A stretch of DNA of 64,000 nt, from positions 1,024 to 65,023 of the forward strand of contig JBKOYG010000047.1 in assembly GCA_046725285.1 (NCBI GenBank). Reading direction: 5' to 3'. Position 1 is the stretch's first letter. Each line of letters starts with the position of its first letter. The DNA is from Verrucomicrobiota bacterium (GTDB lineage: Bacteria > Verrucomicrobiota > Verrucomicrobiia > Chthoniobacterales > UBA10450). The notes beneath the pieces are model-generated. The model was given only the letters and a program-made list of their open reading frames with translations. It was not told where the DNA came from and ran no database searches. Positions 1-63,783 of this stretch are shown here, in pieces. The position numbers were made by a program, and so were the translations under genes.

Positions 1-2623
1 GGTCCTGGTTGTACGGTTTGCGGCTGGCGTAATAGCGATCAATGCGGAGCCAGTGCATGATTCGGCCATGAGACACCTGTAGCTTGCCGACGACGGGGAC
101 GTTGTTTTCGGCCTGGCAGGCGATCACACACGCACTACATCCGGTGCACACATTCAAATCGATACTCATTCCCCACTGCTGCGGTGCGTCCAACGGTGGA
201 TGGGTGTAGATGCTCGGCGGCGGATGCGGCAGTTCCTCCTCTCCCGGAATTTTTTTCGCGAACTCATTATTTTCACGGTACCCATCCAACGTCGCTTCGC
301 GCACAAGACCGCGGCCCTCAATGCTGAACTGCTCCTGTGTAATTGAGAACGGATACGTGCGACCGACTTTCGTCACCCTTACGCTCTCGATCCCCTGCCC
401 TCCCGCGACGGCGAAGTGCGGATTTGCGGCCGTGAGCAGGAAGTAGCCATTAAAACCACTCTGCTCGGCAATCTTTGGCAATTCTTTCAACGCCCCCCCA
501 GCATATGGCAGCGAATCGAACTGTGGCATTTTTCGGGCATAGCCAAGTGAGACAGTAACGGAATTTTCGGCGTGGCCCGGCGATACGAGCGCCGCGATAA
601 CCAGCTCGCGTCTGACCGGCTGGCCGCCGGCGCTCTTTTCATTAATTGTGATCTGCAGCAGATCGCCGGTCAGCACGCCAAGTTTTTTAGCAAAAGCAGG
701 ACTCATTAGCGCAGCATTGTCCCACGTCAGCTTTGTAATTGGATCGGGCAATTCCTGCAGCCAGCCGTTGTTTGCATAGCGGCCATCGTCCATGGCGTAG
801 CTGCCCGTGAGCACTATCTCCGGTGATTCTGCTGTCGGCACCGACGACAGTGTCCAGGAGTTTCGCATCAGCATCGCGGCTGCACCCGCATTAAATGAAG
901 GCGATTGATCGTGGGGCTGGACGTGAGCTGCAAATCCATCGTGGAGAAAGCGTGACCAGGCGGTTTGAAAATCCCCGGGGGGATTTGTCGCGCGAAATGT
1001 TTCCTGGACCAACTCTGGCCCTTCTGTTTTCGCGAAACCGAGCACCCAGCTGAGTAATTCGCTTTCCGAGAGACCGCCGAAGATAGGCAAAATCATCGGT
1101 TGGATTGACAAGTAATCGCCATTAGCGGTGAGGGCGTCGCCCCACGATTCGAGGTAATGTGCAGCAGGAAGATGCCATTGGCTCAACGTTGATGTGACGT
1201 CCTCGTGATAACCAAGCCGCACAATTTCCGGTACGCGGTTTTGCAGCTCAGCCCAATCGAGCGGCAGGCTTTTTTGTTTGTCCTCCACCAGGCCGCGGGG
1301 TGCGTTGTAGACCGGATCGCCGCCGAGAATGAACAGGTGTTTGATCCGGCCGTCGTTAATGTCCCTGGCCAGCTGCGAAATGTCGATTGTTCGGGGATTG
1401 TGTTGAAGCTGGCGAACAACCAGCGTCTGGCCGAGATTCTTGAGCGCGGCGTTAATGGCGTACGCGAGCAATTGCACTGAGACCGGCTGGCTGGGACCGG
1501 CCAGCACCAAACTCGCTCCCGGTTTCGCCATCAGATCGTTTGCTAAGCCAGTGATCCATTGCTCGTCGAATGTGTCACCGCCGAATGCCGCCGAGCCTTG
1601 GACACTTCCCATCACCGATCCAAGAGCGGAATCATTTGTTCCTGCGAGAATTTTAGCTGCAAGCGCGTGCGTTACCGCGGCGACCTGGCTCGCAGGACAA
1701 CGTAGCCGATGGTCCGCCATCGCGCCTGTGAGCGTGAACCGATTTTCTATGACATAAAGCCGGTTCATGCTGTCTTTGGGCGCACTAACGCGGCGACGAG
1801 AGGTAAATGCGCGCACTGACGCGAGATCCCCCTGGCCGCAATCGAGAAAATCGCTGTCCAGTGCAACGATGATATCGGCGCGATCGAACTTGGGAATCGC
1901 TCGCGCCCCAGGTCCGAAAGCAGTCTGCGCCGCCACGCTTGTTCGTTGACTCAAGAAAGGCTCATAAACGCACCAGCGCATCTCCGGGAGTTTTTTTTCC
2001 AACTCTCCCCGCAAACGCTCGCGTGTGGGCGAATTCGTTTCCTCGACAAGAAACGCCAGCCCATCGCCGTGATCGGCCATAACCTTATTGTGAAGTTCTG
2101 TGATGTAGGCTTCGAAATGTGTGCGCTTACTCGTTTTCCCATTGCGGACAAATCGCTTCGAACGGGTCGGGTCGTAAAGGTCGAGAATCGACGCCTGAAT
2201 GAAAGTGTCGGTTGCCCCCGCGCTTGCTGGATGCAACGGATTGCCCTCCAGCTTAATCGGGCGGCCATCGACCGTCGTGGCGAGGAGCGGAATGGCTCCG
2301 GTGCGGCGCGGCATCGCGGTTGCGTAATACAGAAATTTTCCGGGAATCGTCCACTCAACGTTCCTTGTGAACGGAACGAGATGCAGCTCCGGCCTGCGAC
2401 AACTCGTTAGGCCAACCCCTGCCAGCGCCATGGATGCCCCCATTAATTTCAGGAAATCCCGGCGTGACCACTCGTTGCCTGTCAGCTCCGCGATACCTTG
2501 TGGAAATTCGCGCTCGAGCCATTGCCGGAATTCGGGCGAATCGCTGTATTCGCCCAGACTGCGCCAGTAACGCTTGCCCCCGCTACTGCGGGACTCCGGT
2601 GGATGGTGGAATACGCGTTTCAT
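1..2623 (-). CDS. actB: Alternative complex III subunit ActB (molybdopterin-like domain fused to a 4Fe-4S ferredoxin domain). The 3' end runs off the window.
   Basis: Absent from the ORF track because there is no stop inside the window. My reverse translation from the ATG at 2623 gives MKRVFHHPPESRSSGGKRYWRSLGEYSDSPEFRQWLEREFP..., a twin-arginine-like SRRDFLKLMGASMALAG, and CTGCSACVIACQAENN near the window edge. ATGA start/stop overlap with actA. Confidence 0.85.
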   Translation of the reverse strand, partial: MKRVFHHPPESRSSGGKRYWRSLGEYSDSPEFRQWLEREFPQGIAELTGNEWSRRDFLKLMGASMALAGVGLTSCRRPELHLVPFTRNVEWTIPGKFLYYATAMPRRTGAIPLLATTVDGRPIKLEGNPLHPASAGATDTFIQASILDLYDPTRSKRFVRNGKTSKRTHFEAYITELHNKVMADHGDGLAFLVEETNSPTRERLRGELEKKLPEMRWCVYEPFLSQRTSVAAQTAFGPGARAIPKFDRADIIVALDSDFLDCGQGDLASVRAFTSRRRVSAPKDSMNRLYVIENRFTLTGAMADHRLRCPASQVAAVTHALAAKILAGTNDSALGSVMGSVQGSAAFGGDTFDEQWITGLANDLMAKPGASLVLAGPSQPVSVQLLAYAINAALKNLGQTLVVRQLQHNPRTIDISQLARDINDGRIKHLFILGGDPVYNAPRGLVEDKQKSLPLDWAELQNRVPEIVRLGYHEDVTSTLSQWHLPAAHYLESWGDALTANGDYLSIQPMILPIFGGLSESELLSWVLGFAKTEGPELVQETFRATNPPGDFQTAWSRFLHDGFAAHVQPHDQSPSFNAGAAAMLMRNSWTLSSVPTAESPEIVLTGSYAMDDGRYANNGWLQELPDPITKLTWDNAALMSPAFAKKLGVLTGDLLQITINEKSAGGQPVRRELVIAALVSPGHAENSVTVSLGYARKMPQFDSLPYAGGALKELPKIAEQSGFNGYFLLTAANPHFAVAGGQGIESVRVTKVGRTYPFSITQEQFSIEGRGLVREATLDGYRENNEFAKKIPGEEELPHPPPSIYTHPPLDAPQQWGMSIDLNVCTGCSACVIACQAENNVPVVGKLQVSHGRIMHWLRIDRYYASRKPYNQD

Positions 2624-55962: not shown

Positions 55963-56250
55963 CTACTTCGGCGGAACCGTTATCCAGCCGCCGACACCAA
56001 GCGCAGTCAGCACGATTTCCACTGCCAGCGAACAAAGGATGAGTCCCATTACACGGACAAGGACGGACGCGCCCTGCCGACCGATCACCCGCAGAATCGC
56101 ATCCGAAAAAAGCAGCAGGAGATAGGTCAGGAAGAGCACCACCAGAAGGACAACGCCAGTTTCGATCCGCTCCGGCACCGTATAAACATCGTTATCAGTT
56201 AAGACAATCACGGCCATCATCGCGCCCGGCCCGGCGATGACGGCCCGGCC
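55963..56250 (-). pseudogene. marC: marC (MarC/UPF0056 family) 3' fragment
   Basis: Reads ...AVIAGPGAMMAVIVLTDN...SVLVRVMGLILCSLAVEIVLTALG. There is no N-terminal half upstream, where a REP hairpin and hicBA follow instead. Confidence 0.7.
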
Positions 56251-56324: not shown

Positions 56325-56562
56325 TCAGCCGAAGAGCCGCTGAATCAATTCGTCGCGACTAATTTCAAAATGCGCGGCCGCGTCGCCAAGAATTCCGGCC
56401 AGCGTTCCCACTTTAAGTGGATCTGGGAATCGTGACATGATGCTGCCCGCGCTCAGTGGTCGTCAGCCGCAGATGGCTGCCGGTTTGCCGCGTGACTTCG
56501 TAGCCCAAGCGCCCCAGCCGTTTGGCAAGATCCGCTCCCGAAATGTCTCTCGGCAATTTCAT
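56325..56562 (-). pseudogene. hicA: hicA toxin gene, frameshifted
   Basis: My translation from the ATG at 56562 gives MKLPRDISGADLAKRLGRLGYEVTRQTGSHLRLTTTERGQHHVTIPRST*. The +1 frame continues PDPLKVGTLAGILGDAAAHFEISRDELIQRLFG* (stop at 56325). The shift lies near 56415-56425. Confidence 0.7.
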
Positions 56563-56592
56563 CTTACCAACGAGAGCGGTGTCAACTGGCAC

Positions 56593-56799
56593 TCAGCCCG
56601 CAAGCACTTCGTCGCGGACAAAATGCAAACGAATCACCTTCGGGGCGTTTCCCTCATCGAAATGGCAATTCACAGCATCGCGAACCTGTTGCCGAAGCGT
56701 GTCCAAAGTGTCCGCCTCGGTAAAGATCGACTCACCCAAGGCTCGCGCCGTAAAGCCGCCTTCCGCCGCATCCTCGATCAAGAAAATAATTTCGTTCAT
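56593..56799 (-). CDS. hicB: HicB-like antitoxin (HicB_lk_antitox type)
   Basis: MNEIIFLIEDAAEGGFTARALGESIFTEADTLDTLRQQVRDAVNCHFDEGNAPKVIRLHFVRDEVL. Confidence 0.75.
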   Translation of the reverse strand: MNEIIFLIEDAAEGGFTARALGESIFTEADTLDTLRQQVRDAVNCHFDEGNAPKVIRLHFVRDEVLAG

Positions 56800-56898
56800 G
56801 CGTTGCGGGCCAAAAGCGTGTTTCAATTACGCCGAGAGTCTCTGCGATTCGGAGTTCATTGGCAAGAATTGTCGCAGTCCGTTGATTACCGCGTCGAG

Positions 56899-56981
56899 AA
56901 TCGAGCTGAGGGGGTCAGCGAGATAGAAGGTAAAGTCGCGAGGGTAGCGACGAGCGAGCTGGGCAGCGAACGAGTTTCAAT
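56899..56981 (+). repeat. Structured repeat, single A-type unit (locus 1)
   Basis: AATCGAGC-[GCTGA ggggg TCAGC]-GAGATAGAAGGTAAA-[GTCGC gagggta GCGAC]-GAGCGAGCTGGGCAGCGAACGAGTTTCAAT. Abuts the truncated marC 5' fragment. Confidence 0.8.
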
Positions 56982-57173
56982 GACCTGGCCAGCGGTCATG
57001 GCGGCCACGAGGATGATGGCGGCGTAAATCACAGCACGCAGCGCCGTCAGATGCCGCTCTGACCGGGTAAGCGCAGCGGTCAGCCCGGCAAACAACGCTA
57101 CGTTGCCAATTGGATCAATCGTCTTCCAAAGCGTCGCAAAATCCTTGCTGATTTTAATTAACAGAGGCGACAT
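56982..57173 (-). pseudogene. marC: marC 5' fragment a (codons 1-64), truncated by the repeat
   Basis: MSPLLIKISKDFATLWKTIDPIGNVALFAGLTAALTRSERHLTALRAVIYAAIILVAAMTAGQVI, after which the track ORF continues into repeat-derived sequence. Confidence 0.7.
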
Positions 57174-57367
57174 GGGTAAATGTGCGCTGTCGTTTTAAAC
57201 AAACCGCAGATCAAAGGCGAGACAAAGCTATGCGCGGCCGTTCGCGGATGGAACGCGTGAAATGATTTCTTTGGATTCAACGCTTTAACGATTCAATTCG
57301 CCGCTGGACGAATTCGCCGTGGCGGACGCGTTAACGATTCACCGAATCAAACTACGACAGTGGTGCG

Positions 57368-57616
57368 AATCGAGCTGAGGGGTTCAGCGACATAGAACAC
57401 GTCGCGATCGGGTATCGCGCGGGTAGACGGCAGCGCAGCTAGGTAGCTGGCGCAAGCACGGGGCCGTGCGAGTGATCAACGTAAAAGTGACGAGGGTAGG
57501 AGCGAGTGAGCGTGGGCAGCAAACGAGTTTCAATGGAGCGAGTGGGATGAGCGACATAGAAGGCAAAGCTGCGAGGGTAGCAGCGAGTAAGCGTGGGCAG
57601 CGAGCGAGTTTCAAAT
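57368..57616 (+). repeat. Structured repeat array (locus 2): B unit, C block, degenerate A, full A
   Basis: The B unit has GCTGA-ggggt-TCAGC (57374-57388). The C block 57415-57485 is about 90% identical to 61024-61096. The last A unit has GCTGC-gagggta-GCAGC (57568-57584). It ends in GAGTTTCAAAT, fused to codon 12 of a second marC 5' end. Confidence 0.8.
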
Positions 57617-57819
57617 CTTTGCTAATCTTGATCAAAAGCGGAGACATATGCCGGAGCGTGCGTTTTATCCTGATACGAACGAAGGATCAAGCACGAGCAA
57701 AGTTGGCGGTGTGAAATGGGCCATTGCTGACCTCAAAGAGATTATCGAGTTTCTCGCGGAAGATATGACCGACGAACGGCTTGTCTCTACCTGCGCGACA
57801 CCGCTACAATTTGGTTTCG

Positions 57820-58074
57820 ATGGGCAGAGCCGAGAAACTCGCCGCGAAGATTCTCAGTGGAAAATCAGACAAAAATTTTGCCTTCAACGATCTTTGTTAC
57901 ATTCTTGAGCGCGCTGGGTTCCAGCTGCGTCCCGGAAGAGGAAGTCATCGGATTTATTACAAAGAGGGAGTCATCGAAATCGTCAACATTCAACCTCGCG
58001 ACGGAAAAGCGAAACCGTATCAAGTAAAACAGGTGCGCGAACTGCTTTTAAAGTATAAGATCGACATCGAATGA
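57820..58074 (+). CDS. hicA: HicA-family toxin (YcfA-like)
   Basis: MGRAEKLAAKILSGKSDKNFAFNDLCYILERAGFQLRPGRGSHRIYYKEGVIEIVNIQP. 4-nt overlap with the downstream hicB. Confidence 0.7.
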   Translation: MGRAEKLAAKILSGKSDKNFAFNDLCYILERAGFQLRPGRGSHRIYYKEGVIEIVNIQPRDGKAKPYQVKQVRELLLKYKIDIE

Positions 58075-58283
58075 CGACGCGTTACGAACTGATCATTTAT
58101 TGGAGCAAAGAGGACGACAGTTTTGTCGTCGAAGTCCCGGAGCTACCCGGCTGCATGGCCGACGGCAAAACTTACGCCGAAGCCGTGAAGAACGCCGAGC
58201 AAATTATCGACGAATGGATCGAAACCGCGCGTAAACTTGGGCGCCCGATTCCCGAGCCGCGCGGCAAGCTCGCCTACGCCTGA
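58071..58283 (+). CDS. hicB: HicB-family antitoxin (short form)
   Basis: YELIIYWSKEDDSFVVEVPELPGCMADGKTYAEAVKNAEQIIDEWIETARKLGRPIPEP. Confidence 0.75.
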   Translation: MTTRYELIIYWSKEDDSFVVEVPELPGCMADGKTYAEAVKNAEQIIDEWIETARKLGRPIPEPRGKLAYA

Positions 58284-58349
58284 GATCTGCGTTTCATCGC
58301 CGATCACTTATCACTTCTTTCCGACCAACGCTTCAACGACCCGCTCGCG

Positions 58350-58433
58350 AATGGAGCCGAGGGGACACGAGCGACATAGATGGGCAAACCCGCCTAAGGC
58401 AGGTCGAAATGCGCGGGAGCGCATGAGTCAAAG
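58350..58433 (+). repeat. Degenerate unit of the structured repeat (locus 3)
   Basis: AATGGAGCCGAGGGGACACGAGCGACATAGATGGGCAAA... ends in GAGTCAAAG. It retains the 5' half and an ATGCGC-ggga-GCGCAT hairpin. Confidence 0.55.
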
Positions 58434-58604
58434 CTTTCGGAGTCAACCCTCAACAATCAACTCTCAACCATCAACTGCTTTAATGAAGAGAGACATGTGT
58501 CAGAAATGTCGCTCTAGATTTATACGAACGGTCAATCAATCGCGAGGCAGGGTTCGCCTAATTCCTACTTCTTAATTGGTATTTTTTACTTCTGACTTTC
58601 TTCT

Positions 58605-58637
58605 GGCCGCGGTTTCTTCGGATACAGGAAACGTTAA
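58605..58637 (+). other. Relic copy (R3) of the 3' end, including the stop, of the gene ending at 47326
   Basis: GGCCGCGGTTTCTTCGGATACAGGAAACGTTAA encodes GRGFFGYRKR*, versus RGFFGYQKR* at 47300-47326. It shares 20 exact nt with R2 (50642-50661). Confidence 0.7.
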
Positions 58638-58876
58638 AACGCAGATCAGCAAGTTCGCCCTGCTGGATTAAGCCTTCCTCGTTTTCGTCGAATGAAGCCA
58701 TAGACCATGCAAGGTTTGGGATCACCAACTCGACCATTAGCAAAGTGACGATCGGGCCAAATTCGGTCGAAATGGTGCGAAACCCCTCATGCCAATGAGA
58801 GTTTAATACGTGAATTACGGGGATTAACTGGGATGCACGGAGGGCCTGTCTAACCTTGATAGAAGGGGAATCGCAA

Positions 58877-60253
58877 ATGCGCGCTCTCGGCGCGACAGCC
58901 TGTACAGCGCACCCCAAGGTCTTAAAAAATATTGCAGAGCAGCTCGAGGAGCACAACGTCCTCTCCACTCAAGAGCTGCAAATTGCGCGGCGCATGGGGA
59001 TCGTCGCGACTACCCCCGTCGGGCGAGCCGGCTTTAATGACGGACTTCTTTTTCCGTACGAGCTCTTGAGCGGTGGACTTGGTTCGGCCTCGACTATTCC
59101 AGAAGCGGCGCTCGCTCCAGTCGAGCCGAAGAGACCGGAAAAACGAAAGGTGCACGCCATTGCACTGCTGGTCGATTTTTCTGACAACCGGGGAATGCAG
59201 CGGACGACGGATTTTCAGAACCTCCTCTTTGGCAAAGGGAACCCGAATTCCATGGCGAATTTTTACCGACAACTTTCCTACGGCGCGTTGGAGCTGACCG
59301 GGGAAGTAATCGGCTACGTGCGCGCGCCTCAGCCTTACAGCTATTACACAGCAGCCGAAAGCGGCACTGGAACCACTTATCCGCAAAACACGCCTGGGCT
59401 GCTCCATGACGCGCTGACGATTTTTTGTCGGAATGATAACCTGGCGCGTTTTGACACGGACAATGACGGGTTTGTAGATGCGATTTTTCTGATCCATGCT
59501 GGCAGAGGTGCGGAGGCGGAACCAAATCCCACGAAGCGAAAAAACATGATCTGGTCGCATAAGTGGACCCTTCCGCAGCCGTTCGTAAATCAGGGAGTCA
59601 AAGTATTTGCCTACTCCACCGAACCGGAAGACGGGCGCGTCGGTGTTTTTTCGCACGAATTCGGTCACCTACTTGGATTGCCCGACCTCTACGACACGAC
59701 GTTTCGATCTCATGGAATCGGTGATTGGTGCCTGATGGCAGGCGGGTCTTGGGGAGGCGAAGGAAATCGTCCCGCGCGAATGTCGTGTTGGTGTCTCTCG
59801 AAACTCGGTTGGATCAAGCCGACGGTGGTTACCAGAAAAGAATCGATTCAACTCAACACGCTGGAAGAAAAAAAGACCGAGTGCTATCGACTTTGGACAA
59901 AAGGAGCAACCGGGCCAGAATATTTCCTTCTCGAGAATCGCCAGGCCAAAGGGCTCGACGCCGCGCTTGCCGGTTCAGGCCTTGCCGTCTGGCATATCGA
60001 CGAGCGGCAATCAAACAATGACAGTCCGCTCGCCTATCTCGTGGCACTCTTACAGGCGGATGGAAACAAGGATCTGGAACTACTCAAGAATTCAGGCGAC
60101 GGCGGGGATCTTTTCCCTGGCGATAAATGTGTCGCGGCGGTTGACGACAATACTACGCCATCAACACGAGCAAATACGGGGGCTCCTTCAGGCGTAGCGC
60201 TTACCAATATCGCAATGAGTGGAGGTATCATGACCTTACAGGCAGAGGTCTAG
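58877..60253 (+). CDS. M6-family (immune inhibitor A-like) zinc metalloprotease domain protein
   Basis: HEFGHLLGLPDLYD zinc motif, preceded by ALLVDFSD, FYRQLSYG and FLIHAGRGAE. No obvious signal peptide. Confidence 0.7.
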   Translation: MRALGATACTAHPKVLKNIAEQLEEHNVLSTQELQIARRMGIVATTPVGRAGFNDGLLFPYELLSGGLGSASTIPEAALAPVEPKRPEKRKVHAIALLVDFSDNRGMQRTTDFQNLLFGKGNPNSMANFYRQLSYGALELTGEVIGYVRAPQPYSYYTAAESGTGTTYPQNTPGLLHDALTIFCRNDNLARFDTDNDGFVDAIFLIHAGRGAEAEPNPTKRKNMIWSHKWTLPQPFVNQGVKVFAYSTEPEDGRVGVFSHEFGHLLGLPDLYDTTFRSHGIGDWCLMAGGSWGGEGNRPARMSCWCLSKLGWIKPTVVTRKESIQLNTLEEKKTECYRLWTKGATGPEYFLLENRQAKGLDAALAGSGLAVWHIDERQSNNDSPLAYLVALLQADGNKDLELLKNSGDGGDLFPGDKCVAAVDDNTTPSTRANTGAPSGVALTNIAMSGGIMTLQAEV

Positions 60254-60260
60254 CTCCCAA

Positions 60261-60551
60261 TCAAGCCTGATCGGACAGGGGATCGAGTTGTTCGAGAACC
60301 GTACGCTCGCCGAACGGACCAGCCAGTAATCGCGCTTGCACACGAACGCGATCGCCTATCGTCACATCTGGCGCTTGGGCCGCAAATAGAATTAGGGACT
60401 GCCCCTCTGCGGGCTGGATAAAGTCGTCACTTCGGCCACGCGAGAGATTACGATACACTTCGATTTCGATCTCGTGTCCTTGACCCTCGCTTGCTGGCAC
60501 GATCGCTCGAACAGTGCCTTCAACCACCGTCTTATTTGGCTTCGCCAGCAT
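60261..60551 (-). CDS. Small hypothetical protein convergent with the M6 protease gene
   Basis: Clean ORF (the track gives 60261-60635; the ATG at 60551 gives 96 aa). No domain recognised. Confidence 0.35.
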   Translation of the reverse strand: MLAKPNKTVVEGTVRAIVPASEGQGHEIEIEVYRNLSRGRSDDFIQPAEGQSLILFAAQAPDVTIGDRVRVQARLLAGPFGERTVLEQLDPLSDQA

Positions 60552-60761
60552 ATTCAAAGCTAATCGCCCGCCCCTATGAACGTGACCGCGATACGCAAGC
60601 GATAAAAATTGCCGCTCACGGGCCGAGAATGACAAAGATCACATAAAGAGCGAGCTTTTATTCGCACGTCAACCCGGTTTGGTGGCAGCGCTCACCAGTA
60701 TCCCTTTCCCCTTACTTTCTACGGAAACAGCCAGGCGAAGTTTCGAAACCTCAATTTTTTT

Positions 60762-60818
60762 CAGAAAACGACCGGCCACTTTGAGCGAGTGCATGTGAAT
60801 GCCGATCGCGTCGAGAAT
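60762..60818 (-). pseudogene. marC: marC internal fragment
   Basis: The minus strand reads ILDAIGIHMHSLKVAGRFL. This matches the MarC region that follows GQ(L/V)(V/I) (E. coli ...[23 protein letters not shown]), i.e. the expected continuation of fragment a. It starts exactly at the end of repeat locus 4. Confidence 0.55.
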
Positions 60819-61110
60819 GGAGCAACTGGGGGGAGCGACATAGAAGGTAAAGTCGCGAGGGTAGCGACGAGCGAGCTGGGCAGCGAGCGAGTTTCAATGG
60901 AGCTGACGGGTTCAGCGACATAGAACACGTCACGATCAAGGGAATGGAGCTTTGGGGAAAGCGACATAGAAGGCAAAGCCGCAATGGGTAGCGGCGAGTG
61001 AAGTGGGAAGCGAACGAGTTTCAATCGCGCGGGTAGACTGCAACGCTGCTAGGGTAGCTGGCGCGAGCACGGGGTCGTGCGAGTGATCAACGTAAAGGAG
61101 CGAGTGCAGA
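60816..61110 (+). repeat. Structured repeat array (locus 4): A, B, A', C block
   Basis: A has GTCGC-gagggta-GCGAC (60852-60868). B has GCTGA-cgggt-TCAGC (60902-60916). A' has GCTTT-gggg-AAAGC (60949-60962) and GCCGC-aatgggta-GCGGC (60978-60995). C block at 61024-61096. Lies 56 nt from the stop of the nuclease-ATPase gene. Confidence 0.8.
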
Positions 61111-61165: not shown

Positions 61166-63609
61166 TTATACCCGCCGGCTTCTGGCGACGTTAGCTGCTG
61201 CACTTTGTTCAACCTTATCACATTCAGACAAACCCCTTGTGATTACGTTTTGGCACATCTGTTTCCCCTCTGCATCTGAGAGGTCATTGACACAAGTTCG
61301 TAAGTAATTCAGGAAGGCTCGAGTCCTAGCCAGTCTCTCGTCCAGAAGGGTCGTCTCAACAATTTTCGGCCGGACCGACGCATCCGTGATTGGCGTGTCG
61401 ATGCACATTGCATCCAAGTATTGAAACTCGGTGACCAAATTGTTGATATGGTAAGATCCGCGGGTAGTGATTCGAAGCGTGGACACCTTCATCTCGTCCT
61501 GAGTTACCGCAGAACTTGTTTCTAACGAGCCGTTTTCGACCAGAGTAGTTAGGTGCCTCTGGATTGTAGCAACGTCAAAGTAAAAAGACTCGAGATAAGA
61601 AGCGACAGCCATGTATGTGACCCAGTTGCCGGTCTCATGCTGATCGTGGAATCGGCTGAGATATTCAAGCATCAAAAGTCGAATGAAATGCTCCTTTGGG
61701 TCGGCATGGTAGATGTCGAAAAGATTAACAAAGATCGAAAACTTAGGGTCATACTGATCGTAGTCACCGTACAAAAGTGTTTTTACGGCTTCGAAGCTCG
61801 GCAGAAAATACGTGCCTGACTCTTTTATTTTGCCGAGTATTTTGCCCGTATCCAGATGGCCGCTTGTTAAAACGCGTTTCGTCAAATCGAGTAGCGTGCG
61901 GACGTTCCCGTTCGATATCGCCGCTAACATGTGGATAGCACTTGTATCTTTGCGAGCTGAAAATTCACAGCATGCGAAAATCTTAGCTACACTCGGAAGT
62001 CGAAAAGAAATATCCTTGTTCTTCATGGCGTCCTGAAGGACAGGCGTGTCGATTTCGCCAAGCGCAAGCTTTTGCGCAAACTTAAACCTTCGCTTAAGGA
62101 CAAGTGGCAGATCGGGAGAACCAATCGTGAACGTCTTCGGTGCAATTGAATCGAGAACGCCGCTGCGGAAAGACAGATAAAATGTTGTCGGCCTTAAACA
62201 AATGAACACCACGCACTCCCAATCGCGTGCAATCGCGGACGCCTTGAGAAAGGCTGCTTCTTGAATCGCGGGGTCGCGGCGATCTAAATTATCGAAAAAA
62301 CAGCAATCGAGCGTCCACGTCCGCGCTTCAGGTGTCGAATAACTGCTTGGTAATAGCTGTGACGATCCTTTAAGTGTTCCTGAATAAATGCCTTCTCCTC
62401 CTGTTTCGTTGCAGTGAGGTCGTCGCCATGAAGCTTGTACCTGGAACTACGATGAAATCGCTCAATTTGCGAATGAAGTGCGCCACGGACGATTGAGTCT
62501 TCGAGAATATCGATGTTGTGACGGTCGAGCAATTGAGCCTCAAGCTGGGCATATATAAAATCATTTACCTCCGCTGCGCTGTCGGGACGATCGAGGAAGT
62601 TTGCTTCGAGCTGTATGTAGCTCGACAGCGTGTCGCTTGCACCGACTAACCGGAGGTAATTCAAAAATGTCGTCTTACCTTGACCAACATCCCCTAGCAA
62701 GATAAAGGGCTTTTCGTTATCGTAGCCGATGATCGTGTTCGTTACCTGCCCTGTGTCGGCGCTCATCACATTTCTGGTCACAAGTTGGTCTGCCGCCGAG
62801 CGACGGCGTAACATATCCTTAGCGAATGCAATCAGGTGCTCGTTCGCTTGTGGAGACACATAGCATTTTTCCAAAAACAGAAGAGTATTCTCGGTCCGCG
62901 ACAGGATATCCCAGACTGTTTGTAGAATGTAAGAGAGTTCATTTATGAATCGGTTGCGCTCAGAAGTGATGGGATACCCGGGAATGCTCAAGCTGAGCTT
63001 TGCTGGTGCCGGCTTCTTTCGGCTCTCCATCAGCAGTGGATAAATCTCATTTGCTGCTACCGCAGTTTTGCTGAAGCACATCCAGTAACGACGGAAGTTG
63101 TCGCGAATCCTTGACAATGAGTCGAAGACGATGACCTCGCGTTCCTCGATGTTTTGTGATTGGACATATGTCAAAGCGATAATCCATTGATGTCCGTTTG
63201 AGATCGCTATGTACCGCGCTCCTAGTGACGCGGCGTAACCAAGCGCTTGCCGAAGTGCGGCACCTGATTCGGGTGTTTCTTTCTCAAGAAGGGCGAACGC
63301 GACTGGTTCTGGATCGAACACTATCTCCTGCACAACGAAGGAGATGTCCGCGCGCTTCGCTTCAACAACTAATGCAATGCTATTTGCAACGGAAAAGACG
63401 TAATCAGCGTATCCCACCGCTCGGCAATAGTGCTCTGCATCGACGTCAGTTTTTTCCCAATCCAACACGTCGAACAGCAAGACGTCCAATACTTTCAGTC
63501 GCGTGTCTGCTTCGTTAGCGCGATTCGACACTGCTGTTAGTTCGTCAAAACGATTCTGTAACTCTGCGAACGCAGCTTCGGGCGTCCAAGGAATAGTCCG
63601 AACAAGCAT
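61166..63609 (-). pseudogene. PD-(D/E)xK (HsdR-N/Mrr-like) nuclease domain + ORC/Cdc6-like AAA+ ATPase + winged-helix protein, interrupted by a frameshift in an A6/T6 run
   Basis: Nuclease motifs NEADTRLKVLDVLL...YADYVF...ALVVEAKR...YIAISNGHQW. Walker A LLGDVGQGKTTF. With one extra T at 62295-62300 the reading continues SIAVFFDNLDRRDPAIQEAAFLKASAIARDWECVVFICLRPTTF, which gives a Walker B and joins track ORFs 62284-63714 and 61166-62212. Sensor-2-like NGNVRTLLDL. Confidence 0.7.
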
Positions 63610-63783
63610 GGCTGCAATCGTACAGCCCAAGGGGCTCAACGAAAGTTTTTTCCTTCTCGTAAGTGTAACAGCATTTTCAGCTAAGAACCGCTGGAATCTG
63701 CACCGCTGTCGCAACCTCAGTGAAATTGCGTGTCGCAGCCGCCTTCATTCGGAACTGCCGGTGTTCGGGTGCAATCGACATAA

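Follow-up and report, generated by a model that had tools for sequence, protein, structure and literature searches.

The IS200/IS605 elements and the palindrome-associated transposable elements (PATEs) carry subterminal stem-loops on one strand, produce no target-site duplication and include gene-less copies that are moved in trans (PMC10055086). In the GTAG-tagged repetitive extragenic palindromic (REP) sequences, GTAG stands upstream of the hairpin, the stem has G·T pairs, and insertion into an open reading frame (ORF) is occasional (PMC3733652). Here we describe a repeat unit of about 83 bases from a 64,000-nucleotide stretch of a Verrucomicrobiota genome (assembly GCA_046725285.1, contig JBKOYG010000047.1, positions 1,024 to 65,023; hereafter the window). 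The unit is a non-coding element with three + strand hairpins that are maintained by compensatory changes. It is mobile DNA that carries no gene, also occurs in longer forms that are nested or mosaic, and inserts precisely at G|AA|W. Its hosts are Verrucomicrobia of the Udaeobacter/Chthoniobacterales type, to which it is specific and which are soil bacteria; Candidatus Udaeobacter and its relatives rank with the most abundant bacteria of soil, have not been cultured and are thought to possess streamlined genomes. No earlier description of the unit was found in Rfam or the literature, and the repeat surveys consulted mention, for this phylum, only the GTAG REPs of Opitutus. Rfam 15 gave no matches over the whole window and just noise at E up to 5 over 56850-57650, and the core motif had no match in a full-text literature search.

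Three hairpins are maintained by compensatory changes

Since the four to six copies of the window were too few alone, 67 distinct full-length copies were gathered, 4 from the window and 63 from metagenome-assembled genomes (MAGs) of the Verrucomicrobia lineage. Species-representative genomes were scanned for GAGC-N8-11-AGCGACATAGAA, which gave 120 loci, many of them by chance (individual loci are cited below by L numbers). A profile built from four window units had 96-106 matches, located in 57 of the 120 loci and in the window, and the matching loci came from ~39 species-level assemblies.

The 67 copies were aligned with MAFFT (alignment A1). H1, at the left end of the unit, has the form AUG-(GA)-GCnnn-UGGGA-nnnGC-(GA)-CAU; H2, in the middle, has the constant loop GAGGGUA, which contains GTAG; and H3, near the right end, has the form GC-(GA)-GCn-GGGM-nGC-(GA)-GC and is followed by GAGTTTCAA. 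The linker GCGACAUAGAAGGUAAAG is invariant, and the invariance of a purine-rich linker of 20 nt extends across ~39 species. Over the stems of H1, H2 and H3, 82.3% of the cells are paired compared to 69.8 ± 0.7% in shuffled alignments, and the covariation score is 0.336 compared to 0.156, with none of 500 shuffles reaching either value. When the pairing partners were slid by 1-3 columns, the covariation score was at most 0.109. Both RNAalifold and single-sequence folds suggested that H1 extends outward through AUG...CAU across a GA/GA internal loop and that H3 extends through GC...GC across a second GA/GA. The resulting structure of 18 pairs is 84.9% paired (73.6% when shuffled) and has a covariation score of 0.316 (0.141 when shuffled; 0/500 in each case). 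In the outer extension of H1, 59 copies have G:C at pair 4-27 and 6 have it cleanly flipped to C:G.

The stems occur in many complementary versions, at least 6 for each hairpin. H2, which is 92.7% paired, shows double changes at all five of its pairs and is found as GCTGC/GCAGC, GTCGC/GCGAC, GCCGC/GCGGC, GCTGT/ACAGC, GCCAC/GTGGC, GTTGC/GCAAC and ATCGC/GCGAT, as well as in wobble forms. The versions of H1 are GCTGA/TCAGC, GCTTT/AAAGC, GCGCG/CGCGC and GGAAA/TTTCC, and those of H3 are GCT/AGC, GTT/AAC, GCC/GGC, GAC/GTC, GCG/CGC and GGC/GCC. The common variants that seem to be unpaired are those in which two adjacent Watson-Crick pairs are swapped for tandem 5'-GA-3'/3'-AG-5', as in GCGAA...TGAGC for H1 and GYGAC...GGAGC for H2; the same motif is constant in the extensions of H1 and H3. 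Tandem G·A/A·G was counted in 29 and 26 copies for H1, in 10 for H2 and in 57-60 for H3, and the exchange of a Watson-Crick dinucleotide for tandem G·A is a neat natural case of a non-canonical substitution that preserves structure. A long G-rich run, GGGGGGGGAGGAGGAAGGGGGGGATGGGGGGGG, was seen within the H3 region of one unit in a long-read MAG (L092, ~400-480, minus strand), and this run may be an assembly artefact.

An earlier note, made from the letters of the window, had claimed that compensatory changes support two hairpins in the repeat unit. Its H2 stems at 56935-56951, 60852-60868, 57568-57584 and 60978-60995, with the loop GAGGGTA (once AATGGGTA), are all found there, and its H1 stems, GCTGA/TCAGC at 56905-56919, 57374-57388 and 60902-60916 and GCTTT/AAAGC at 60949-60962, are all exact. 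The compensatory changes themselves were upheld in the 67 copies, in which pairing and covariation exceed 500 of 500 shuffles and every slid control; the larger alignment for which the note had called shows stem positions that covary, with no codon-position pattern. Both of its hairpins are real, but H3 and the outer extension of H1 had been overlooked. Two sites that it took to lack hairpin 1 are variants: that at 57535-57560 is a tandem G·A/A·G form of H1 with a G·T closing pair, and that at 60821-60840 is a degenerate copy of H1.

The hairpins form on the G-rich + strand and the unit does not code

The imperfect pairs identify the folding strand. There are more G·T/T·G than A·C/C·A pairs, with ratios of 9:3 for H1 and 20:3 for H2 (29:6 together), and tandem G·A is seen only on the + strand; the G·T excess and the tandem G·A thus place the fold on the G-rich + strand. 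Folded singly, copies have z-scores of -0.65 to -3.4 on the + strand, modestly better than shuffles, and the single-copy scores are modest whether the copies are folded as RNA or as DNA; the support for the structure is comparative and not thermodynamic. As RNA, the + strand folds better than the - strand. The folding that the earlier note had proposed, as RNA and as DNA, gave only a modest gain over shuffles. The note had missed both the folding strand of the repeat and its mobile nature, with defined ends and insertion sites.

Variation is concentrated on the stem columns, with the inner stem columns variable, and shows no 3-base periodicity (permutation p = 0.35), and unit lengths range over 82-86 nt and so do not change in steps of three. 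A peptide-coding repeat is rejected on these three grounds, and the C/T-rich composition of the minus strand accounts for its open frames. Together with the excess of G·T over A·C and the tandem G·A, these features support the claim of the earlier note that a folded nucleic acid, rather than a peptide, is under selection.

The unit inserts precisely at G|AA|W

Four independent pairs of filled and empty sites were found. In the first, L020 and L080 have the empty sequence ...ATCGGG AAT AACCAACC..., and a paralogous copy in L020 is filled, reading ...ATCGGG, then the unit from AATGGAGC... to ...GAGTTTC, then AATAACCAACC...; in the second, L117 carries the unit at another AAA of the host sequence that is seen in L020/L080. 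In the third, the window has the empty site GACATGGGTAAATGTG (57170..57182, + strand), just upstream of the start codon of a MarC gene, and L056 has a unit at the orthologous position. In the fourth, the intact MarC genes of L060 and L056 read GTCGAG AAT/AAC GACCTG, and the window and a second L060 copy carry the unit exactly there. The empty sites are exact, with AA(T) on both sides of the insert and once in the empty site, and none of the four pairs has a duplication beyond AA(T). Because AA(T) is present at both junctions, a duplication or crossover of 2-3 bp is indistinguishable from an end that belongs to the element. The flanks give the target logo G 79% | AA | W (A/T) 89%, and the left end of the unit is always AAY. 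There are no terminal inverted repeats, as the ends AATGGAGC... and ...GAGTTTCAA are unrelated as inverted repeats.

Insertions are often into copies of the unit's own superfamily and occasionally into genes, as with MarC. Units are nested in a relative, module D, at GGTCG|AAA|TGGG in five genomes. In three genomes, one of them that of the window (60943-61025), they interrupt another small element, module C, at GGG|AAT|CGCG. Module C is in turn found inside the unit at ATAG|AA|GG, which gives a long form of 167 nt; it folds as three hairpins with GGG loops and has two GGGTAG motifs. The spacing from left end to right end is 80-99 nt in 69 cases and is never gene-sized, save for two unrelated pairings in L062. 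Most copies are solitary, and the tandem clusters are head-to-tail in all cases. The neighbouring genes are unrelated and are housekeeping or accessory (for example NADH dehydrogenase, PFK, ThiC, LpxK and Dxr); orientation relative to flanking genes is random, with the two orientations in roughly equal numbers and all four arrangements represented, and no protein family or transposase recurs near the copies. The filled and empty pairs, the defined ends, the unrelated neighbours and the lack of a linked gene show that the unit is a non-autonomous mobile element.

Direct repeats of 7-9 nt (CACAGAT, ATCTGTG, ATTGGTG and GAAGTAAG) flank some copies and were considered as a long target-site duplication. 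This was rejected: the filled and empty pairs have no duplication of this kind, and the direct repeats are pre-existing short tandem repeats that contain GAA. Many insertions lie within tandem repeats with a period of 7-10 nt (L002, L052, L072, L078 and L093, CACAGAT/ATCTGTG), and short tandem repeats like GAAGTAAG flank units in L059, L085, L087 and L096. We read these as GAA-rich target regions and not as duplications.

Other repeated sequences accompany the unit. A conserved sequence of ~100 nt (TGTTGCAACGCGCGCACTGCCTCCTGTTGCCACAGATCGGGAATAACCAACCCCGCCCC...) is repeated in single genomes and shared among genomes (L020 2640-2760, L080 3830-3950 and 1420-1480, L117 20-230), with unit insertions at two different AAW sites. 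In L018 (671-788 and 2680-2772) and L083 (4391-4503) the unit is interrupted, between GAGCGAC and CATAGAAGG, by a hairpin insert of ~32-34 nt (CCGCCTACGCCAACGCGCTACGGCGCGGCAGG), and another module (TCCGAGCCGGACTGGCA...) replaces H2 in L050, L083, L100 and L119, which shows that the mosaic has further members.

The assemblies with matching loci are labelled Verrucomicrobiae, Spartobacteria, Chthoniobacterales or Candidatus Udaeobacter, with the single exception of Limnocylindria, and the viral contigs scanned held no copy. Three good copies are found in L058 and L059 (DATLPS01, labelled Candidatus Limnocylindria, Chloroflexota); these are either mis-binned Verrucomicrobia contigs or the result of horizontal transfer.

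Copies in the window and the interrupted MarC paralog

In the window the repeat is limited to 56.9-57.6, 58.35-58.43 and 60.8-61.1 kb, and every copy is on the + strand. Unit U1 (56899..56981; nhmmer 80 bits), a short form of the AATCGAG.../...GAGATAG subfamily, comprises the extended H1 at 56900-56924, H2 at 56935-56951, H3 at 56954-56971 and the right end GAGTTTCAAT. Judged by the empty site in the intact MarC of L060 and L056, it lies within a MarC paralog at codon 65. A long form of ~167 nt follows at 57368..57534, with the left end and H1 at 57368-57397, module C (57398-57480) nested at ATAG|AA|GG, and a 3' part (57483-57534) that holds a tandem-G·A variant of H2, then H3 and the right end; such a long form is also present in L012, L092 and L097. 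The short-form unit U2 (57532..57615) is in tandem with it, the AAT junction being common to both; its H1 is the tandem G·A variant, and its H2 is GCTGC/GCAGC at 57568-57584. The D-type relative at 58350..58431 has the left end and H1 (GAGCCGAGGGGACACGAGCGACATAGA) of the unit but a different middle, with the hairpin ATGCGC-GGGA-GCGCAT, and terminates in GAGTCAAA. This hairpin is ATGGGC/GCCCAT, fully paired, in L039 and ATGGGC/GCACAT, with one mismatch, in L102, and in both the inner stem bases differ from those of the window copy.

The third cluster starts with the short-form unit U3 (60816..60898), which has a degenerate H1 and H2 at 60852-60868. In tandem with it is a long form (60896..61110) that is truncated at its 3' end and split by a nested unit; it has the left end and H1 at 60896-60925 and module C in a 5' part (60926-60942) and a 3' part (61026-61096). 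The nested unit is the short-form U4 (60943..61025), with H1 as GCTTT/AAAGC at 60949-60962 and H2 as GCCGC/GCGGC at 60978-60995, and it interrupts the first of the module C hairpins, at GGG|AAT|CGCG. The same nested composite recurs in L092 and L097, and the long form at 57368-57534 and that of L012 serve as uninterrupted comparators.

Pieces of MarC border several of these copies, all on the minus strand. Residues 1-65 are encoded at 56979..57173 (Pfam MarC, 1.8e-11) and stop exactly at the right end of U1. With the intact L056 MarC as the query, tblastn placed residues 65-80 at 60771-60818, residues 120-204 at 55984-56238 and residues 1-12 of a second MarC copy at 57612-57647; the right end of U2 adjoins codons 12-1 of this second 5' fragment. 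The left flank of U3 is MarC codons 80-65 in antisense, so that the second half of the site of insertion into MarC is found at U3. A MarC paralog was disrupted by the unit at codon 65 and then rearranged; at least four MarC pieces are scattered and out of order, which points to rearrangements after the insertion. In L060 a disrupted MarC copy adjoins a nearly intact paralog, and around the MarC gene the window is 82-92% identical to two unit-bearing MAGs and thus belongs to their lineage.

The MarC pieces are separated by two HicAB pairs, a gene for an M6 peptidase and ORFs that have no annotation. The HicA/HicB-type toxin-antitoxin pairs are at 56413-56826 (-) and 57781-58283 (+), with HicA at 3.1e-07 and 3.8e-09 and a HicB-like match at 2.3e-10; the 77-residue partner of the first HicA has no Pfam match. 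Several ORFs of 87-196 residues in the window run through repeats, and those at 56437-57027, 56886-57173, 57384-57647 and 60761-61024 cross repeats or fragments and are not genes. Three ORFs that adjoin the repeat island, at 61166-62212 (-, 348 residues), 62284-63714 (-, 476 residues) and 60261-60635 (-, 124 residues), have no Pfam or PADLOC match, and PADLOC found nothing among the ORFs that neighbour copies.

How the unit may be moved

The explanation that we prefer, to which we give somewhat less than an even chance, is that the unit is a gene-less element like the REP sequences and bacterial interspersed mosaic elements (BIMEs) or like the IS200/IS605 PATEs, and that its hairpins are single-strand recognition structures. 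The hairpins and the invariant linker GCGACAUAGAAGGUAAAG would be recognised on single-stranded top-strand DNA by an enzyme that acts in trans. This enzyme would most plausibly be of the HUH type, as are the Y1 transposases that move IS200/IS605 PATEs and REP sequences or their doublets (REPINs). Recognition of a single strand would explain why the folds were kept across dozens of species. Recognition by an HUH enzyme is favoured by the asymmetric ends, hairpins on one strand, imperfect but conserved stems, invariant single-stranded linkers, apparently scarless insertion beside a very short motif and the GTAG before H3, features that resemble those of IS200/IS605 elements and PATEs (PMC10055086) and, less closely, those of GTAG-tagged REPs (PMC3733652); the conserved GTAG (as GGGTAG) stands 4 nt 5' of H3 and likewise of the paralogous hairpin of module C.

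Several results weigh against this explanation. The ~460 kb around the copies yielded neither a Y1 transposase nor TnpB, nor any further transposase, whose ends match; a search for an autonomous copy, by the spacing of left and right ends and by recurrent neighbour proteins, found none. A single-stranded transposon that depends on the lagging strand should show an orientation bias, but none was detected by the sign of GC skew (37:42) or by gene strand (38:41), both being weak proxies in 8-kb pieces; by the same kind of weak proxy, neighbouring clusters have the same rather than opposite orientation in 16:7 cases (p = 0.09). Pairing of guide and cleavage site of the IS608 type is not evident by eye, and the G·U pairs, the GNRA-like GGGA loops and the tandem G·A are equally expected for RNA.

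A REP-associated tyrosine transposase (RAYT) was a further candidate for the cognate enzyme. A motif screen found a RAYT gene in L104 (4055-4549; NCBIfam REP_Tyr_transpos, 3.7e-20), and an 84% ortholog is present in a unit-bearing MAG (L121). Both RAYT loci (L104 4013-4700 and L121 2430-3060) are flanked by a classical REPIN, GTAGGTGGATCGAGCGCTCCG ... CGGAGCGGCCGATCCACC, and the unit covariance model R1 has no match at these REPINs. The candidate was rejected because the flanking REPINs (GTAGGTGGATCGAGC...CGATCCACC) differ from the unit, which also counts against the preferred explanation. The RAYT and its REPIN are a second, unrelated repeat system of the lineage, and hundreds of RAYT relatives, 63-84% identical, occur in soil metagenomes; a metagenome scan for RAYT relatives yielded nothing.

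A less likely explanation, though the strongest of the others, is that the unit works as an RNA with a protein-binding, stabilising or regulatory role for its GGG(A) loops, co-transcribed or made from its own promoter, and that mobility is only the means of its spread. Tolerance of G·U, GGGA loops of the GNRA type and tandem G·A are classic RNA features, the + strand out-folds the - strand as RNA, and the 20-nt purine-rich linker is invariant over ~39 species. In REP stems, G·T pairs have been taken to indicate transcription (PMC3733652), which we also count for an RNA role. However, copies lie in both orientations relative to flanking genes in roughly equal numbers, beside unrelated genes, and nested within one another and within coding sequence; in addition, the unit has no conserved feature that resembles a promoter or a terminator, and Rfam has no match even at the relaxed E value given above. 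The earlier note had offered folded RNA or single-stranded DNA as alternatives; of the two we consider single-stranded DNA the more probable.

Somewhat less probable again is a double-stranded miniature inverted-repeat transposable element (MITE), moved by a recombinase or transposase with a 2-bp crossover or stagger at AA (a serine transposase of the IS607 type or a DDE enzyme with a very short duplication), in which case the structure of one strand would be incidental or would serve an RNA encoded by the element. The AA (often AAT) that is present at both junctions but single in empty sites, a target specificity that is weak beyond G|AA|W and the lack of a detected replication-strand bias are consistent with such an element. 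In contrast, the ends are asymmetric, with neither terminal inverted repeats nor repeated subterminal binding motifs on both strands, recognition of a duplex leaves the compensatory changes with their G·T excess and tandem G·A unexplained, and no such enzyme was seen near any copy.

We give slightly less weight still to movement by an enzyme or mechanism that so far has no known link with ends of this kind (a new class of mobile element, dependent on a single strand or on RNA), or to GGG-loop hairpins that are a functional RNA spread by transposition. Such an RNA would place, for example, a protein sponge or a guide-like RNA with three GGG-loop hairpins and tandem G·A in Udaeobacter genomes.

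An integron-like cassette array with attC-like units is very improbable. HicAB pairs and small ORFs do lie between repeat clusters, and attC sites do fold as single strands, but the R''/R' cores (RYYYAAC...GTTRRRY) are absent from the unit, which has three separate small hairpins instead of one long imperfect hairpin. Moreover, single copies are dispersed beside housekeeping genes in many genomes, insertions occur inside coding sequence and other copies, and no integrase was seen among the scanned neighbours; attC sites were therefore rejected on anatomy and distribution.

A degenerate array like those of clustered regularly interspaced short palindromic repeats (CRISPR), or a crRNA-like gene on the minus strand, has the least chance of all: minus-strand GTCGCTGAnCCCnTCAGCTCCATTGAAAC resembles by eye a type I-C repeat and its handle of 11 nt, and tandem units give a repeat/'spacer' period of ~81 nt, but the 'spacers' are the conserved H2-H3 part, ATTGAAAC is formed only at tandem junctions, wobble pairs and G·A put the structure on the opposite strand, most copies are solitary, and no cas genes are present among ten repeat-adjoining ORFs of the window and 150 ORFs beside copies elsewhere, so that this candidate was rejected. 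The minus strand of 60895-60925 and of other tandem junctions gives GTCGCTGAACCCGTCAGCTCCATTGAAAC, which is strikingly type I-C-like; we judge the likeness to be a coincidence that could mislead CRISPR finders.

Significance and comparison with known systems

As a conserved and structured repeat that is active in insertion, the unit marks genome plasticity in the Udaeobacter lineage. In the window it destroyed a MarC paralog and is part of a toxin-antitoxin island that has been rearranged. It probably gives rise to breaks in assemblies and to spurious ORF calls, and it is a handle toward the enzyme that moves it, although its practical value is modest unless the unit proves to be mobilised in a new way.

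One of the closest comparisons is with the IS200/IS605 PATEs. Like them, the unit is small and gene-less, with asymmetric ends and imperfect stems, and it has subterminal stem-loops at both ends (H1 on the left, H3 on the right) on the top strand only. It inserts precisely beside a short motif with no target-site duplication beyond AA(T), which is on both sides and may be either a duplication or crossover of 2-3 bp or an end of the element. As in IS608, the right end terminates at TCAA, in the unit ~6-10 nt past the last hairpin. The unit differs in that the ~460 kb around its copies hold no TnpA/TnpB with matching ends, its target is just ~3-4 nt (GAAW) with AA at both junctions, its left hairpin lies 1-3 nt from the boundary and not ~15-20 nt, it has three hairpins instead of two, and no orientation bias was detected with the weak proxies used.

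With REP sequences, BIMEs and REPINs the unit shares an interspersed, mostly intergenic and structured character, an arrangement in mosaics and clusters like that of BIMEs, a hairpin preceded by a conserved GTAG, stems with G·T pairs and occasional insertion into an ORF, and RAYT genes exist in its lineage. However, the RAYT genes of two related genomes are flanked by a different, classical REPIN and not by the unit. In addition, the unit is a fixed array of three hairpins with defined ends and not a single palindrome of 20-40 nt or an inverted doublet, and its GTAG overlaps the loop and 3' arm of H2, 4 nt from H3, instead of abutting the stem. Classical DDE-type MITEs do not match, as the unit has neither terminal inverted repeats nor, beyond AA(T), a target-site duplication of fixed length.

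The BOX, Correia and ERIC repeats are likewise modular, non-coding and multi-copy, with predicted folds and insertion polymorphism between strains, but they have no sequence similarity to the unit, which matches no Rfam family. Neisseria Correia and enterobacterial ERIC elements, unlike the unit, have terminal inverted repeats and TA-type duplications, and for the A/B/C modules of pneumococcal BOX we know of no reported strand-specific fold that covariation supports. The unit is a new family of the familiar selfish-DNA-repeat kind and not a new kind of system. Although membership in neither the REP nor the PATE family is shown, it agrees only in part with the definition of a PATE and works like an element of the REP/PATE type.

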